Below are positions 36,477-64,000 of a stretch of DNA of 64,000 bases, one piece after another; positions within the stretch are counted from its first letter, which is position 1, and each line of letters begins with the position of its first letter. The position numbers and the translations under genes are program-made. The DNA lies in NCBI RefSeq assembly GCF_025526975.1, contig NW_026515671.1:1674001-1738000 (forward strand), written 5' to 3'. The DNA is from Fimicolochytrium jonesii (lineage: Eukaryota). The notes beneath the pieces are model-generated. The model searched no databases, was not told where the DNA came from, and saw only the letters and a list, made by a program, of their open reading frames with translations.

Positions 36477-37095
36477 GGGAGGATGTTCACCGAGGCATGA
36501 GGGAAAGGGACCGTGCGCGTGACCTCATAATGCGCCTGTGCCCTGTGAAGCCCCTGTTCTAGTCCTTCTGGGCGGACGCGTAACCTTCGCACGAGAGAAG
36601 GGAGAGAGTCCCAGTCGGCCATTGCGTCATTCATTCATGTCCATGGGGGGCGTCGGTTGCTGCGCCCTTCCAAGATAGGTCACAAGTCACGTGCCAACTG
36701 CCTGTCAATCCGCGTTGGGTAAGCACACTCCGACCAGCAACATTGGGTCACCTCCAAACATGGGAAGTTGCTCAGAGTCGGGGTTGGGAAGGTGGAAAAT
36801 GATTCTCGCCTCACTGGCTGCGGACGCAGAAAAAAAGTGCAACTTAACGGCACGACGGCTGATACAGTACGGTTCTCAGCTACGGCAGATGTCGAGGGCT
36901 CTTCAGACCCCGTAATGGGGAAACCCAACGACCAGGTGCGTGAGCCATTGTCCGACTCAATTGACCCTTACTACTATTATTCTATATACACATACACAGC
37001 TATCGAGGCGGAAGGTCAGCAAGTATCAGAAACGGGGGAGTCTAACCCTTTCTTGTAAGGATTCAATCGGGAAACCTCACGGGCGAAACACTCGA

Positions 37096-50435: not shown

Positions 50436-53400
50436 ATGCTCGGCGGCACCCACGAGCTTCGTCCTGACGCGTCGCCTGCGTCGGGAGCCCGACAAGCCAA
50501 CGTCGCCATAGATGACGCTCGGGACGCTCATGTTCCGAACCTAGTAGTGACGCCCGTCGCCGGTGCCACAATCAACAATGATAATGAAGCGAATGGTTCC
50601 AACTGCAACACGCCCGAAGCGAAGCGACACAAGAACGCGGTCGGATCTAGGACCCCGCAACATCGCAATCTTCGGTCGGCTAGCAGGGCTGGTGGCTCCA
50701 CTAGAATGGCGAGAAACACCGACACGGCCGCTGGCGATCGTGCTGGTGCCTCGTCGCAGCAACTAAGTGATTTACAAGGTGGTATTATTACAAGACTCAG
50801 GGAGCAACAACTATGCGAACAGAACGTCCCGCAGGCTAGGGCTGATCCTACTTCGGTATCCGGATCAGCTGATATGCGACTTCGGAAAGTCGTTTCCAAT
50901 GAGCTCGCTACTCAAAGCGGTAGTACTAAGAAGTCAAGGTAAGTTGAGCGTCGTCCTTATATCTGTACCTGGTCACATCTCATAATATTCTTTCCCATCA
51001 CCAATATTGGTAGAATCCCTCATCTGCGATCAGATGTATTGCTCACACCGTCCAAAGCAAGCTCTGCTTGGGCGGCCATTCCGCTGGACTCTCCAGCGAG
51101 TAACACTAGATCAAAGTAAGTTTCTCGCCTCAAAGCGCGCCGACATGGGGACAGCTTCATCAAAACGAAACTTTCACTGACTATATCCTTCATGCTCGCT
51201 AACTACAGGAGCTGCCTGCAAACCAAAAACATCCATGACCTACTTCTAGAAAAGACCAGCCCAGGCCTCATCGCTGCGGGGGCGAGCAGCTCACAAGATA
51301 TTGATGACCCTGAAGCGGACGTCTGCCCAGACTCGCCTTCGTATCGTCGATCAAGCAGCAAAGGGAAAGGAAAAGCACCAATGTACGGCTCCTCGGCGAA
51401 AACCTCGCCGGTATCAAGGATCCCCTCTCGACCAGCTTCGCGCTCCAACAGTAACCTCGGTTCTCCTCGTCTTTCGCGATCGTCGTCCACCATCTCGTTC
51501 CAGGCGATCGATCACAACAATCTGTTCGATGACAGCCTTCCGACCCCTCAGGCGCCAGGTCCGGATATGGATGCAGATGACTTCATCAGTCAGATTGCTC
51601 CTGCCGCTGAGCCTGACACGCCCAATCGTTCGACATTTTCGGCGCCTTCTGATCCTAGCGATATCAGCCCTTTTGCCGTCACGGAAGATACACCGCGAAC
51701 AGCCAAGCTTTGCTCGGCGCTCAGCGATTTCGGCTTTGGCGCGGCCCCGACTCCTTCGCATCGTCCTCACGGTCTCTTGCGCAATGCCACTATGCCACAA
51801 GGCAGCAGCAGCCACAGCATGAAGAACAGGATGGTCGCTTCGTCTCCCATGAACCTGGGCTCCCCGAGTCGTTCATCCACAGGGCTATCCCCGCAACAGT
51901 TCTACGGCGAGCAGCCTCGAAGCGGTGGTAGTCGGGCCGCAAGCTCACCGCGCGCCTCACCCGTCGTTGACCCCGAGCTGAACCCATTCATGGGATCCAG
52001 CATGCAAGTACCCAGGATCCCTGCAACCCCTGCAACCCCTCGCGTCTCGAGTTCTCGTGTGCCTCCACCCGGCATCCTTGCTGCGGGAGAGGGCGCTTCG
52101 TCGAGATCGCTCATGTCTCGAATGTCAGCTACCCCTTCCGCGCTTCTTAGCCCGTTCGGCAACATGGGGCTCCGCAGCGCTATCGCAAGTCGCGGACCAC
52201 ATGATGGAGAATACCTTCGCAGCAGGGATGTCGATCAGACCCCGTCCAAGCAGCGTCAGCCGGAAATGGATGAAGCTAGCCCGTTCTTAGCTGGTCCGTC
52301 GTCCCCATCTTCCCCATCGCGTCGACGAAACCTTAGCTGTGGCCCGTCCGCACTTCGGCCGCCTATTCCAGGGTCGCCGTCACCGATGTCGTCCGGCAGG
52401 CCAAAGTCCGTCAGCCGTCGCCTCTTTCCTGCGCCTGAACACGATGACCGCCGATTCAAGCACCGTGCTCACTCCCTACCTCATCGCGGGGCTTCAAGCA
52501 ACTTGGCAGGTCCGTCCCAGCTCCCTGACGACGGTCACATGCAAATTGATGCACGCACGCCGTCACGAGCCGGCACAGACATTGCACGACGACGCCCCGG
52601 TGTCGACATATACGGCCCAGCTCCTCCAAAACCTAACTTCTTCGGGGCAGACGGGCCCAGTTCATCGACGATGACCAGCGCTCTACCGCCGCGAACACCA
52701 AGGAGGCCCAATGGCAACAGTCTACGCCACGACGTTCTTCTTCGAAGCGCAAGCAAGAGTGCAAGGAAAGGCCCTTTTCCGAATGATTGCAACCCATTCC
52801 TCGCCGCGGCTAGTGGTTCAAGTCAGTTCCCATCGACGCCTTCTCGCCCTGGCCCACAGCGAGAAAGTTCTAGCGGTGCCGGTCTATCTACTTCTACCCG
52901 CCCAACACCTAGGAATAATGAGCCTTCTCGAACACCGCCAGACCAACAGGAATCGCCGTACGCACACCGTGTCCCGCCCACACCTCGTACCGACCGCAAG
53001 CGCAAAATATCAACAGAAAAATCCCCTACGCCTCGCAAACAAACCCCGCAAGGCCGGCTAAGCTATGGTGCCCCACCTTCCAGGCCAGACTTCTCAGGCT
53101 CATCGACGCATTCATCGGCGCGGAAGCGTCAGCGAGTGGACCCGGCCGAGGAACTGAAGTTGAACGGCTCGGCGTCCATCGCCGCCGACTACAGGCGGTA
53201 CGACGAGTTGCCTGCTCGTCTCGACTTTGACATCCCTGACGATTCCGATGAGGAGTCCGACTCAGACAAAGACTCTGATGATGGCGATTCCGACTCTGAT
53301 GAATGTACTCACGCTCATCGCACATACAAGAAAGGCGATGATGATCAAGGCAATGGTGGAGGCACATCTTCGTCATCCGCTGGTAGCAGCTCGAGCTCTT

Positions 53401-59523: not shown

Positions 59524-60282
59524 GGAAAACGTTCCAGGTTTGGCAAATTACATCTAATGATTTAGTTCCATAAGGCGGTTTTGGAGCAAGGATCTGTCCA
59601 TACTTTCCAATGCTTGCGTGAGTACTAGGATAGAGACTGATGATAGCATAAACTCTTCAGACAGACATGATAAAAGATATGTGACTTTTGAGTGAATATA
59701 TATCGGCGTGGCCTTGATAAGATTGCCCATATGCGTGAGAGGCGTGCTCCTGCCTACTATTGAACCCCCCCCAGTCCTTCTGCGGGAGAGGGAGAGAGGC
59801 GCGTGTGAATCTCTCCCAATGTGAGTCACCCCTCCCCACAACGAAGCCGCACATCGATCCTCTGCCGTTTTTGCACCACAAGCCATCGTAAAAGCCCTAT
59901 CTATCTCCCCATCCTCCCGACACCCACCCTACCAGGGTTCGAGCTGCCTCGTCTGCGTCGGTTCCAGCCGCTTTGAGGTTTCTTTCGGTCATGCGAGTGG
60001 TCTGCTGCCATCCGCTTTCGTTTCGCTAGGCCGTGATCGTCCTGTCATCTCACACCTCCGGAACCGCCATCGTGGGGCATTCGTCTTTCCGTTAAGGGGA
60101 ACTTTATTTTCCATATCTTATTTGTCCGCTATATTCGTACTGCAACCACCCTTTATCGTGGTGCCATACCCCGCATCTCTTCGCATCGTCGTCTCGTTTC
60201 CATAAACCACCGCGTCAGCATTCGACGCCACATTACACCCATATCCCAACCATCACTTGACACCCACCCACCGCTAAACAAA

Positions 60283-62287
60283 ATGTGGGACCCATACGGC
60301 ACCCAACAGCAGCAGCAACAGGCCGCAGGGGCAGGTGGCGATCCACAGAAGACGACGTTGTGGATGGGCGATTTGGAGCCATGGATGGAGGAGAATTATA
60401 TCAGGAGTTTGTGGTAATGTTTTTTGTGTGATTGGGGGTTGACTTCATTGTGGGGATTGTGTATTGATGGGTTTTGTGTGTTAATAGGGCGGCGATGGGG
60501 GAGCAGGTTAATGTAAAGATGATTCGGGATAAGATTACTGGGTAAGCGTTGGTGTGAGGTTTGCGGGAATATCGAGCGACAGGGAGTAATGATGCCGGGA
60601 TGGCCGCCATCGGTGTTGTTTCGCGTCGGAAGGGGCATTCCGAGTGCGGACAAGGGCGATGAATGTCGCCGGAGGTGCAAAAATGATCCCGCATGTCATC
60701 AAAATGTCCCATCCGCCGTGCGTCCCTTCTTTGTATCCTCAAGACCGAGCCCGCTGACAATCTCCTCTCATTCACAGACAAAACGCAGGCTACTGCTTCC
60801 TCGATTTCCCCACCAACCAATCCGCCAACCGCCATCTCAATAATGTGAACGGCAGCCTGATACCTGGGACGAACCGAATGTTCAAGTTGAACTGGGCGTC
60901 GGGTGGAAGAGATATTAGTACGAGGTATGAGATTTGTTCGGGTGGTAAGGAGGGTTTTCTTGCTGATGCTGATACTACGCTTTACCGCCCTGGTCTGGTA
61001 GGGAAGAGCGAGGCCCGGAGTTTTCGGTGTTTGTTGGAGATCTTGGACCTGAGGTTACCGATGCCGTTCTACTGGTATGTCTGCGAGAATCGTCATCATT
61101 AGACGAGCTTGCGATGTACTCATATCACCCTCTACTTCTTTCAAAAAGGCAACGTTTCAACAAGCCCGCTTCACAACCTGCAAATCAGCGCGTGTGGTCA
61201 CTGACCCAGCCACCGGCGCATCGCGTGGTTATGGTTTCGTCAGGTACGTCCACCCATCCTCCTCACTATCCGTTTGTCCCAACCTCCGCTCCTTCACTAA
61301 ACAATCCACATCGTCTCCCCAGATTCACCGACGAAGCCGAACAACAGCGCGCCCTTACAGAAATGCAAGGCGTGTACTGCGGCAACCGCGCCATCCGCGT
61401 CTCCGTCGCCACGCCGCGCAACAACACCGGAGGCGGAGGAGGGATGAGAGGTGCGGCGCAGCAGGGTTATTATCATCCGGCCCAGCAGCAGTATGATGCG
61501 AATAATACGACGGTGTTTGTTGGGGGCTTGGATGGGAATATCTCGGATGATGAGTTGAGGAGGTATGTTCGATGGGAGAGATCTCTTGTTCCGCGGTGGA
61601 CGCGACACGCTTTGAGTGGTTGATTGATTGATTGATTGAACCTTTATTTCTTCGGCAGTTATTTCCTCCCATTCGGCGAAATCGTGTACTCCAAAATCCC
61701 ACCCAACAAAGGCTGCGGGTTCATACAGTTTGCCCACCGCCAGTCCGCCGAGATGGCTATCATGCAGATGAACGGCGCTATCATCGGTAAAATCACGAAC
61801 TCCCCTCTTCTCTTTCCCCACCCCCCACAATCCCACTAACCCTCCGGTCCTATTCCTAGGCGGCATCCGCGTCCGCCTCTCCTGGGGCCGCACGCAACCC
61901 TCCACCCCCAAATCCGATCCCTCCTACCGCTCCTCCGCCCCCTCCTCGCCCTACATGTCGCACACCCCGCCCTACGGCACCTCAGGCGGCCCGCCAAATC
62001 TGCATTTCAACCCGATGACGATGATGGGCATGCTGGGCCACCACCCGCATCACCATCATAACCAGCAGATGCAGATGCAGATGATGCATCAGATGCATTT
62101 GCAGCAGCAGCAGATGGGGATGGGGATGGGTGGGCAGAGGGGGGTGGTGGATGAGCAGCAGCAACATCGTAGCGCCACTTCTACTGGTGGTGCCACTGGC
62201 GGTGCTGGTGAAGAGGCGAGTGAGGAAGAAGGGTTTGCGAGGAGGAAGGAAGATGGGACTGGGAAGAGTGAGCCGCGGGCTGCGTAA
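60283..62287 (+). CDS. Triple-RRM RNA-binding protein (Nam8/Ngr1/TRNAU1AP family), multi-exon
   Basis: TTLWMGDLEPWMEENYI, AGYCFLDF, FKLNWASGG, FSVFVGDLGPEV, SRGYGFVRF, NNTTVFVGGL, KGCGFIQF, VRLSWGR; Q/H/M-rich tail. Confidence 0.93.
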
Positions 62288-62695
62288 GGCGCGCCCCCAT
62301 ACTATATTTACGTCGGGGCGCGGAGACGGAAAGTGGGAGGTCGGAGCCCCAACAGCAACACACAGCGGGAAGAACCCAAAAGCGGGCAGATAGCCCCCGG
62401 GGTTTATAGGCATAGCAAAATAGTATTACAACTGTCTCACCCCGCCGCCGCCCGTTGAAAGGAAAGGCATACCATTACAACAAAGCAAAGCCATTTTGTG
62501 AACGTTGAAAGAGGGCATTGGGGATATCTATTGCTGTAGACGTGCGGAAAAAAAAAGCATCAACGCGCAGTCCCAGGTATCCAGCAGTATCCTGACCGTG
62601 CGGAAACATGAAAGATACCATATGTAATCAGATACCATTGATGAATGTCATTACACAGCTTTATGTTCGAACAGTTTTGACTGTTTCCCGACAGC

Positions 62696-62769
62696 TACAA
62701 GTTGCCATCATCGGCGACGCCTCAGGCAGAGGTACAATGATGTGGATGGCAGATAACCACCACGGAAAA
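62696..62769 (-). ncRNA. Candidate Fanzor omega-RNA scaffold / transposon right end
   Basis: Starts ~24 nt after the Fanzor stop. Self-complementary TGCCATC...GATGGCA stem encloses a CCTC-TGCCT-GAGG hairpin; ends in TA. Boundaries inferred by analogy to characterised Fanzor1 loci. Confidence 0.55.
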
Positions 62770-62792
62770 TGGGATGGGGTGAGGATTCTAGA

Positions 62793-63643
62793 CTACCTAC
62801 GGTTACGGGAGAATACGTCTGGTCTGCGGCCATTGCCAAACACCACCGAACGCACAATCGAGAGGAAATTCTTGGTGCTTAGGACGTCCCGATTGTGCAC
62901 TCTCATCCGTAGTGGTCGTCTTCCAGGAATCTCAAATGGCGTCCAGTCTTGGTTGATACATTTGGGGTTGGGGCAACCCACCAATCCATGGACGTATTCC
63001 ATTCTTCCCTTTCGGGCTTGCCACGGCCGAGGTGACAGCCGGGGTCGGATGTTTTTCTTCACACGCCCGTGGCAGTCTGGGCACACGGAAGACGTTCGAT
63101 ACTCATCTAACAAGTAGCATGGAATGCTGTTTCTTGCAAAGAGGGTGCGGAATCTGATTTCCATGATGAGTTAGCATATTAAAATACTTAAAAAACAATG
63201 ATGGTCACTCACCCCTTGGTCTTTGATGACTCCTGAAAGCGCATGGTTTTTCCAGCGTCGCTCCAATCACCCAAGATGACGGCAAAATGCTTTCCATACA
63301 GGCGTCGCATGTTCTTGATGAGCTTGCTCTCAGACTTTTGCCGCAGTGAGAACGCCTTGAATCTGCGAGCGACGTGAATCTCATCCTGGTAAAACTCATC
63401 CAGGGCGGGATCTGGGATATGGATGTCAGCCCATGTATTACCAAATTTGAAGACAAAGCATGATACATCATACCCGCATGTTCGTAATCCACAATGAACG
63501 CTGAGAACGCCTCAATGTCCATGCTCTTGTGCGACGGAATATGTGATTCCATCTCAGCGATGCCGGCATTGATCTTTCGCTCTGTCATGTCTCGTTGAAA
63601 GTACCGAGACTTTGTCTCGACCGCCCGTTGATTGGATGTGTAT
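62793..63643 (-). CDS. Fanzor1-type (TnpB/Cas12-related) RNA-guided nuclease, C-terminal ~243 aa; exons 63643-63474, 63411-63213, 63153-62793; 5' part not in window
   Basis: Spliced frame is intact: YTSNQRAVETKSRYF...LDEFYQDEIHVARRFKAFSLRQKSESKLIKNM...VILGDWS...TKG|FRTLF...YLLDEYRTSSVCPDC...VHGLVGCPNPKC...HNRDVLSTKNF...RPDVFSR. These are RuvC-II (E), zinc-finger and RuvC-III (D) motifs. Introns of 62 and 59 nt have GT-AG ends and CTRAC branch sites. Confidence 0.88.
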
Positions 63644-63682
63644 CTGGTATGGGGTGGTGCATTGTGAGATTACTACTGCCCT

Positions 63683-63878
63683 GCTGTCCCCGCTGTCCCC
63701 GCTGTCGCCGCTATCCCCGCTGCCCATCATCGGCGACGCCTCAGGCAGAGGTACAATGATGTGGATGGCAGATAACCATGCCCCTATCCCCGCTGTCGCC
63801 GCTATCCCCGCTATCCCCGCTGTCGCCGCTGTCGCCGCTGTCGCCGCCGCTATCCCCCCTGTCGCCGCCGCTGTCCCC
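63683..63878. repeat. 9-bp GC-rich minisatellite (GCTRTCSCC)n, ~14 units, interrupted by a 53-55 nt insert
   Basis: Units gctgtcccc/gctgtcgcc/gctatcccc read directly at 63683-63718 and 63783-63878. Confidence 0.9.
63724..63778. repeat. Exact 55-nt direct repeat of 62705-62759
   Basis: CCATCATCGGCGACGCCTCAGGCAGAGGTACAATGATGTGGATGGCAGATAACCA occurs identically at both positions. Confidence 0.97.
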
Positions 63879-63949
63879 GGTTTCCGAGTTATACAGCCCG
63901 TAGTGCAACATATGACCGTAACCATGTCTGTGTTCCATAGACGTCATCA

Positions 63950-64000
63950 GACACTGTGTCCGAGTGGTTAAGGAGTTTGCCTCGAAAGCAAATAGGCTTT
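63950..64000 (+). tRNA. tRNA-Ser(CGA), 3' end beyond the window
   Basis: GACACTGTGTCCGAGTGGTTAAGGAG (acceptor 5' strand, A-box/D-arm), then anticodon stem TTTGC-CTCGAAA-GCAAA (anticodon CGA at 63983-63985), then the start of a long variable arm. Confidence 0.88.

Follow-up and report, generated by a model that had tools for sequence, protein, structure and literature searches.

Does the DNA that directly follows the stop codon of a Fanzor1 reading frame in Fimicolochytrium jonesii encode an omega RNA, and where would its scaffold give way to its guide when the adjoining gene is itself only a remnant? The locus lies near the end of a 64,000-nt window (the whole stretch of DNA analysed: assembly GCF_025526975.1, contig NW_026515671.1, forward-strand positions 1,674,001 to 1,738,000), and a preliminary description had proposed an omega-RNA scaffold and guide there. 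By its sequence hallmarks, and by analogy with known systems, the minus-strand segment 62770–62696 is probably the scaffold of a SpuFz1-type Fanzor1 omega RNA, predicted to be transcribed with the next ~15 nt (62695–62681) as its guide and to depend on a full-length paralog for loading in trans, or else to be a recent relic. The stretch is thus likely an ordinary new omega RNA of the known SpuFz1-type system.

SpuFz1, the protein of element Spu-1 of Spizellomyces punctatus (structures 8gkh and 9ceu–9cez), provides the reference. As described by Saito 2023 (PMC10432273), its omega RNA consists of a 75-nt scaffold and a 14–15-nt guide and is encoded 3′ of the ORF, spanning the right inverted repeat. 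The RNA is laid out there as SL1, a 6-nt linker and SL2, with SL2 closing at the scaffold/guide junction (U35-A75), and U5, C6 and C7 contact the NUC and RuvC domains (PMC10432273). According to Xu 2024 (PMC11423790), SL1 has seven base pairs in 3/3 solved Fz1 complexes, and the remaining scaffold outside SL1 is seemingly unconstrained. We took the SpuFz1 scaffold and four ghost scaffold sequences from the supplement of Saito 2023, and these sequences were compared by eye rather than computed.

The 74-nt string of the preliminary description is present on the minus strand at 62769–62696, followed by GCTGTCGGGAAACAG at 62695–62681. We number the RNA such that nt n corresponds to window position 62771-n, with A1 at 62770 and A75 at 62696. 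The predicted parts of the RNA are as follows.

62771–62792, minus strand: 22-nt spacer between the Fanzor stop and the scaffold, with no similarity by eye to the 21-nt SpuFz1 spacer.
62696–62770, minus strand: predicted omega-RNA scaffold, 75 nt (nt 1–75), from sequence, CM alignment, pair probabilities, signature count and by-eye comparison with SpuFz1 and ghosts.
62764–62770, minus strand: predicted 5′ single-stranded AUUUUCC with the equivalents of SpuFz1 U5, C6 and C7, from sequence and the account of Saito 2023 (PMC10432273).
62742–62763, minus strand: predicted SL1, 7 Watson-Crick pairs with U25 bulged and loop UUAUCUG, from pair probabilities, CM alignment and covariation in relatives.
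62707–62741, minus strand: predicted SL2, with outer helix AUCAUUG/CGAUGAU (nt 30–36/58–64) and inner hairpin CCUC/GAGG, from the MFE of the 55-mer and pair probabilities.
62696–62706, minus strand: putative 3′ tail GGCAACUUGUA, last bases UA, by analogy with the 3′ ends of relatives and with SpuFz1 ...CUA.
62681–62695, minus strand: predicted 15-nt guide GCUGUCGGGAAACAG, read from flanking DNA, its length taken from SpuFz1 guides of 14–15 nt.

Homology to omega RNAs is suggested by four features: a start with UUUUCCG (nt 2–8), a 7-bp SL1, a stop-to-scaffold spacer of ~21–22 nt, and a terminal UA reached at nt 75. The scaffold start at 62770 lies 22 nt past the TAG (62795–62793) of the Fanzor reading frame, on the same strand. 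Its sequence up to nt 66 reads ...GAUGAUGG and its 3′ end reads ...CAACUUGUA. Placement of the candidate omega RNA right after the Fanzor stop, as the preliminary description had it, therefore matches SpuFz1 in position and structure, but the folding of the region is no better than that of shuffled sequences.

This last point holds at every length that we folded. Energies gave z = +0.51 for 126 nt (132/200 shuffles at least as good), z = -0.60 for 91 nt (52/200), z = -1.28 for 74 nt (17/200) and z = -1.12 for 55 nt (26/200), and the region's folding energy alone is not above chance. Within the thermodynamic ensemble, the predicted SL1 (GUGGUGG/CCAUCCAC, 7/7 Watson-Crick pairs and one bulge) pairs G8-C29, U9-A28, G10-C27, G11-C26, U12-A24, G13-C23 and G14-C22 with probabilities of 0.63–0.86. 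The inner CCUC/GAGG hairpin reaches 0.87 and the outer SL2 helix AUCAUUG/CGAUGAU ~0.48, the latter from a single sequence and with a topology unlike that of SpuFz1. The preliminary description had emphasised another stem, UGCCAUC (nt 20–26) with GAUGGCA (nt 62–68), alongside an alternative pairing of CAUCAUUG (nt 29–36) with CGAUGAUG (nt 58–65) and the pairing of CCUC (nt 39–42) with GAGG (nt 48–51). The bases of all three pairings are present, but the UGCCAUC/GAUGGCA stem competes with the conserved SL1 and has ~0 ensemble probability; we rejected it (energy -14.5 vs -17.2 for the homology model and -21.1 for the MFE). SL1 itself, the 55-nt repeat and the 5′ truncation of the Fanzor gene (both below) were absent from that description, whose interpretation is right in outline and wrong in the stem it emphasised. 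The check that it had proposed, RNA folding with covariation analysis, came out divided: energies do not exceed shuffles, but the SL1 helix covaries in relatives.

To obtain these relatives, metagenome contigs were scanned with an alignment of exon-3 homologs, which matched 158 stretches, 62 of them confirmed, and yielded 61 Fanzor1 loci. Six non-identical sequences (L033, L034, L036, L039, L030 and L022; duplicates L035, L040 and L042 omitted) served as a seed. They align gap-free over 28 nt, with T5, C6, C7 and G8 and the loop positions T15, T16, A17, C19 and G20 invariant, and all show UCCG ahead of a 7-bp stem with a UUAUCG loop. In the seed helix (8–14/21–27), 85.7% of cells are paired and 6/7 pairs are changed on both sides; its covariation score was reached by 0/500 shuffles, and slid registers lower the paired fraction to 40–55%. 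A CM built from the six seeds, with the window excluded, finds six more loci (L054, L048, L015, L026, L020 and L044) in a search of 52 loci from which nine duplicates had been left out, and all six new matches lie on the Fanzor strand. Across the 12 relatives, the module starts between 117 nt before and 371 nt after the in-frame stop, and 4–7 of 7 pairs are standard. TCC occupies nt 5–7 in 12/12, and G8 is found in 6/6 seeds and replaced in 3/6 of the loci found by CM (L048, L020 and L044).

The window shares with these relatives (L033, L034/L036/L039, L030/L048, L022, L054, L015/L026/L020 and L044) the combination of UCCG, a 7-bp SL1 and a UUA(U/A/C)CG loop on the Fanzor strand near the end of the ORF, as well as unpaired 3′ tails after SL2. 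With L033 it has AUUUUCCGUG..GGUUA in common (18/24 nt, by eye). The relatives differ in that their proteins are 26–57% identical to the window's exon 3 (best segment), sequence past SL1 is unalignable, and spacers range from -117 to +371 nt. Two groups bear on where such RNAs end. Between L030 and L048, 98% identity extends through ...CUAGUAU and is lost thereafter; in L034, L036 and L039, conservation sets in a few bases ahead of UCCG and runs to ...GUUACUUU(G).

Several further observations were made on these loci. L030:3486–3700 and L048:679–893 are two independent insertions of one element; a short ATAGTA shared 4 nt into their flanks may reflect a target-site preference. At L033:2255–2288 the final ~11 Fanzor codons are also part of the 5′ module of the omega RNA (AUUUUCCGUGUCGGUUACCG...). 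Such an overlap is reported for GtFz1 but is seen neither in SpuFz1 nor in the window. In L017, L008–L011 and L030, the interval from the Fanzor stop to the module is filled with short repeats, tandem or dispersed, and the L017 spacer includes a run of repeated GGATAGGATATTGT units. L003/L004 and L001 have UUCCG and a hairpin after the stop and were excluded from the CM seed and the pair counts, as they do not fit the 7-bp register. A MAFFT alignment of whole scaffolds (window, L033, L003 and L001) was set aside as structurally meaningless past the 5′ motif. A search of relatives L036, L030 and L003 for inverted repeats found no terminal ones in which the right end takes part.

The statistical case for the site in the window is positional and partly post hoc, because the CM score alone is not decisive: the CM from six relatives, with filters off, gives the site 12.4 bits (E = 0.99, rank 3/18 among window hits). 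The two hits above it, at 52133–52173 (+) and 36725–36750 (+) with 14.7 and 12.8 bits, also consist of UCCG and a hairpin; lacking Fanzor context, they were taken as chance. When BLAST was run with the 90-mer on the loci and with the L033 module on the window, nothing exceeded chance; the 10 exact nt shared with the L033 module (E = 11) were matched by many equally good chance alignments. We then counted a signature derived from the relatives, in which TCCG, six bases and TT[AG][TC]C are combined with a 7/7 stem that may contain no more than one bulge. The count is 1 over both window strands, at the scaffold site, compared with a mean of 0.015 in 200 block-shuffled windows (3/200 had any), a test that is partly post hoc since the pattern was written after the window sequence had been seen. 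The 0.015 figure does not take into account that the site must also lie 22 nt past a Fanzor stop. Rfam models searched against 60000–64000 returned no omega-RNA family, only a cut tRNA and a weak isrG chance match, and a bacterial promoter/terminator scan, which is not relevant to a eukaryote, gave nothing above shuffles.

The gene next to the scaffold is a Fanzor1 gene in part only. The preliminary description had called it Fanzor, which agrees with its Fanzor1 frame, but just the C-terminal ~210–230 aa of a ~730-aa protein are there.

62793–63666, minus strand: 5′-truncated Fanzor1 gene remnant, from ORFs, exon translations, protein matches and tblastn.

The remnant consists of three exon-like blocks, at ~63588–63474, 63411–63213 and 63153–62793, with two short GT..AG introns between them; the third block contains the TAG, and the remnant's protein homology extends up to ~63666. 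When P0012, P0004, P0011 and P0008 were compared with the whole window by tblastn, they matched only 63666–62799, corresponding to residues ~525–732; all remaining matches in the window are low-complexity noise (E >= 0.003). Exon 3 (119 aa) matches 13 proteins, all from F. jonesii, 12/13 at 89–96% identity and one at 69%, and full-length F. jonesii paralogs measure 707–732 aa. Against SpuFz1 (8gkh), the full-length paralog P0012 gives E = 1.5e-133 and the remnant's exon 3 E = 2.4e-30 (2.4e-11 against PpFz1). In Pfam, the three exon translations gave only a sub-threshold Cas12f1-like_TNB match (14.8 bits vs a 26.3 cutoff), and P0012 gave nothing at E <= 0.01, although PF26935.1 is listed for it in precomputed annotation.

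The remnant retains the RuvC-II Glu (LLDEY), a CxxC zinc ribbon and the RuvC-III NRD (Asp). Mapped by eye, W570, which stacks on U5 in SpuFz1, is conserved, and among 14 SL1-contacting SpuFz1 residues five are identical, two conservatively changed and seven changed, with a 9-aa insertion. WED, REC and RuvC-I (the IDPGKRD motif) are missing from the remnant. The local Fanzor gene cannot make an active nuclease, and therefore the scaffold and the local gene cannot act together in cis. Upstream of ~63666 comes a 9-nt minisatellite, followed at the window end by the 5′ portion of a tRNA gene, so the missing part of the Fanzor gene is not simply beyond the window. No left end, 30-nt inverted repeats, CA motif or TAM is visible at the locus, and a search of 60000–64000 found no inverted copy of the scaffold end, the sole other copy being direct. 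The left end was presumably lost with the 5′ truncation, and because it is missing the TAM is not readable here.

Other copies and neighbors of this gene add some detail. A number of paralogs appear degraded: past ...EYVHGLV / ...QARK the C-termini of P0012 and P0013 are aberrant, P0011 is without the RuvC-I motif and shares a variant HNAPP..RYTSNQ with the window copy, and P0004 likewise is without the IDPGKRD (RuvC-I) motif. On the far side of the scaffold, a gene at ~61077–61836 (+) has two RRM_1 matches (3e-05 and 1.6e-08) and is followed downstream by a His/Gln/Met-rich stretch (ORF 61955–62287), so that the Fanzor remnant is flanked by this gene on one side and by the tRNA on the other. 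The tRNA gene at 63950–64000 (+), cut by the window end, is matched by Rfam at 25.9 bits (E = 0.026); ARAGORN found no tRNA at this cut site, in whose upstream region the Fanzor remnant lies. A plus-strand ORF at 62608–63114, over the flank and the scaffold, was searched for copies mis-called as proteins, and none of the 28 candidates scored.

The scaffold core also occurs a second time, next to the truncation point.

62705–62759, minus strand: 55-nt repeat copy A, scaffold nt 12–66, an exact repeat.
63724–63778, minus strand: 55-nt repeat copy B, 100% identical to copy A, an exact repeat.
63679–63879, no strand assigned: 9-nt minisatellite flanking copy B on either side, its units reading GCGGCGACA / GCGGGGATA on the minus strand, from repeat analysis.

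Copy B lies 1,019 nt from copy A, upstream of it, and 0/100 shuffles gave such a match. Its borders are sharp (by eye, flanking matches are 2/11 on one side and 2/9 on the other), and it sits in phase inside the minisatellite, which abuts the truncation point of the Fanzor remnant. Because it has neither the 5′ UUUUCCG nor the 3′ tail, copy B is not a second omega RNA. Perfect identity between A and B, against 4–11% protein divergence among paralogs, fits better with recent local copying than with an old second element. One quite improbable but specific version of such copying is a repair scar: during homing or gap repair, copying of the element may have started at its right end, proceeded inward and broken off after ~1 kb, and the break may have been sealed with a templated patch from nearby omega-RNA DNA or omega-RNA cDNA. 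If true, Fanzor-linked break repair would have left a native footprint in this genome, the 55-nt copy; in any case, a duplicated core within a minisatellite at a truncation junction is a small, concrete puzzle about the origin of such copies.

The repeat matters for the 3′ border of the scaffold as well. We place the scaffold/guide border at 62696/62695 as a best guess; the same split in the preliminary description is the most plausible one by likeness to SpuFz1, but it is a border set by analogy alone. An unlikely alternative is the same omega RNA with its right border at nt 66 (62705) and CAACUUGUAGCUGUC (62704–62690) as guide, in which case the 55-mer upstream would be a fragment from the end of a second element. 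The two 55-nt copies do cease to be identical exactly at nt 66, where SL2 also closes, and SpuFz1 SL2 as described closes right at the scaffold/guide junction (U35-A75; PMC10432273). However, the left limit of the 55-mer (nt 12) is arbitrary, so that the right one may be too, and relatives also bear unpaired tails past SL2. The border at 62696 is favored because the tail resembles the ends of relatives and of SpuFz1 and because of the length: ACUUG-UA resembles ...ACUUUG (L034/L036/L039) and ...CUAGUA(U) (L030/L048), where conservation between independent copies drops, the reported SpuFz1 scaffold ends ...CUA, and a total of 75 nt equals that of SpuFz1. The guide that follows has no second exact copy in the window, its sole exact match being its own site. 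Allowing <=3 mismatches, it has 4 window matches vs 2.22 expected, and 19/100 shuffles had >=4.

Two other explanations concern what the stretch is rather than where it ends. It is highly improbable that the hairpins and UUUUCCG merely mimic an omega RNA within an ordinary 3′ untranslated region. Such mimicry would agree with folding z-scores of -0.6 to -1.3 and +0.5, a CM E-value of 0.99 and non-significant BLAST matches, but it would have to bring together an identical 7-mer, a stem whose 7 bp keep the register of the family, a UUAUC loop, a UA that falls on nt 75, and a start at nearly the same distance from an orthologous stop (22 vs 21 nt). Such a combination is expected only ~0.015 times per window even if its position is disregarded. 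More plausible, though still on the unlikely side, is that this is a true omega-RNA homolog that is dead, the leftover of a decayed 5′-truncated element that is no longer transcribed, loaded or used. Truncation of the gene, absence of the left end and the degenerate look of several paralogs are all as expected for a relic. Conversely, UUUUCCG and 7/7 SL1 pairs are intact, and the three exon blocks have stayed open, at ~94% identity to paralogs, from which we infer that the remnant copy is young. Absence of a working gene in cis also need not mean loss of use, as S. punctatus ghosts without a Fanzor gene are reported to work with SpuFz1 (PMC10432273).

If the scaffold is indeed that of a usable SpuFz1-type omega RNA, scaffold and guide (the next ~15 nt) are predicted to be transcribed as one minus-strand RNA. 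By analogy with SpuFz1, its 5′ UCC (U5–C7) and SL1 would dock on the RuvC/TNB surface of the Fanzor protein, and SL2 would be dispensable. Because the local gene is truncated, loading in trans by a full-length paralog would be required, as can happen with S. punctatus ghost omega RNAs by the published account; otherwise the locus would be a recent relic. The flank-derived guide would then target for cleavage a copy of its own flank that lies next to a TAM, i.e., the element-free site. In bacterial TnpB, guide-directed cutting serves element retention or homing.

On this reading, SpuFz1-type omega RNAs would extend to a second genus of Spizellomycetales. From the relatives comes a simple signature by which such RNAs can be recognised and checked, UCCG followed by a 7-bp SL1 with a UUAUCG-like loop; it marks a dozen uncultured Fanzor1 loci. 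The combination of an intact-looking guide RNA gene with a dead nuclease gene is a case in which ghost-like loading in trans would matter for the persistence of an element. These findings leave the known Fanzor mechanism unchanged.

The predicted RNA has much in common with SpuFz1 as published. By eye, 14/20 of the first 20 nt are identical (nt 2–8 UUUUCCG, G10, GGUU at 13–16 and UC at 18–19), and UUUUCCG at nt 2–8 is the same in the window, SpuFz1 and its four ghost scaffolds. The stop-to-scaffold gap is 21 nt in SpuFz1 and 22 nt here, on the same strand; SL1 has 7 bp, one bulged base and a UU(G/A)UC loop; a terminal UA stands at nt 75 in both; and a guide of ~15 nt from flanking DNA would follow the scaffold. 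The protein partners belong to an orthologous family (E = 1.5e-133 for the full-length paralog).

There are also differences from the published SpuFz1 RNA. Three of seven SL1 pairs, the counterparts of SpuFz1 A9-U27, C11-G25 and C12-G24, are changed on both sides with pairing kept (A-U to U-A, C-G to G-C and C-G to U-A). The loop has 7 nt here and 6 in SpuFz1, and the bulge is U25 here and G22 there. The window lacks the 6-nt linker, and its predicted SL2 closes 11 nt (the tail) before the guide rather than at the guide. In addition, the gene here is truncated and its surroundings are without visible 30-nt inverted repeats, CA motif or TAM.

The locus also invites comparison with the ghost omega RNAs and with TnpB. 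Ghost Spu-1 is described as 134 loci in S. punctatus with no Fanzor ORF and a ~550-nt conserved region between two inverted repeats (PMC10432273). Like these ghosts, the window would have a scaffold without a functional Fanzor gene in cis, usable only in trans; it differs in that a ~870-bp 3′ gene fragment persists and there is no left end, whereas the ghosts as described have no ORF. The omega RNA of TnpB overlaps its ORF widely and has a pseudoknot, in contrast to the SpuFz1 type, which is described as having none (PMC10432273). In the ISDra2 TnpB omega RNA (reRNA) and in Cas12 guide RNAs the guide lies 3′ of the scaffold, as it is predicted to do here, and as with ISDra2 TnpB the guide RNA would derive from the right end of the element and its guide from the flank.
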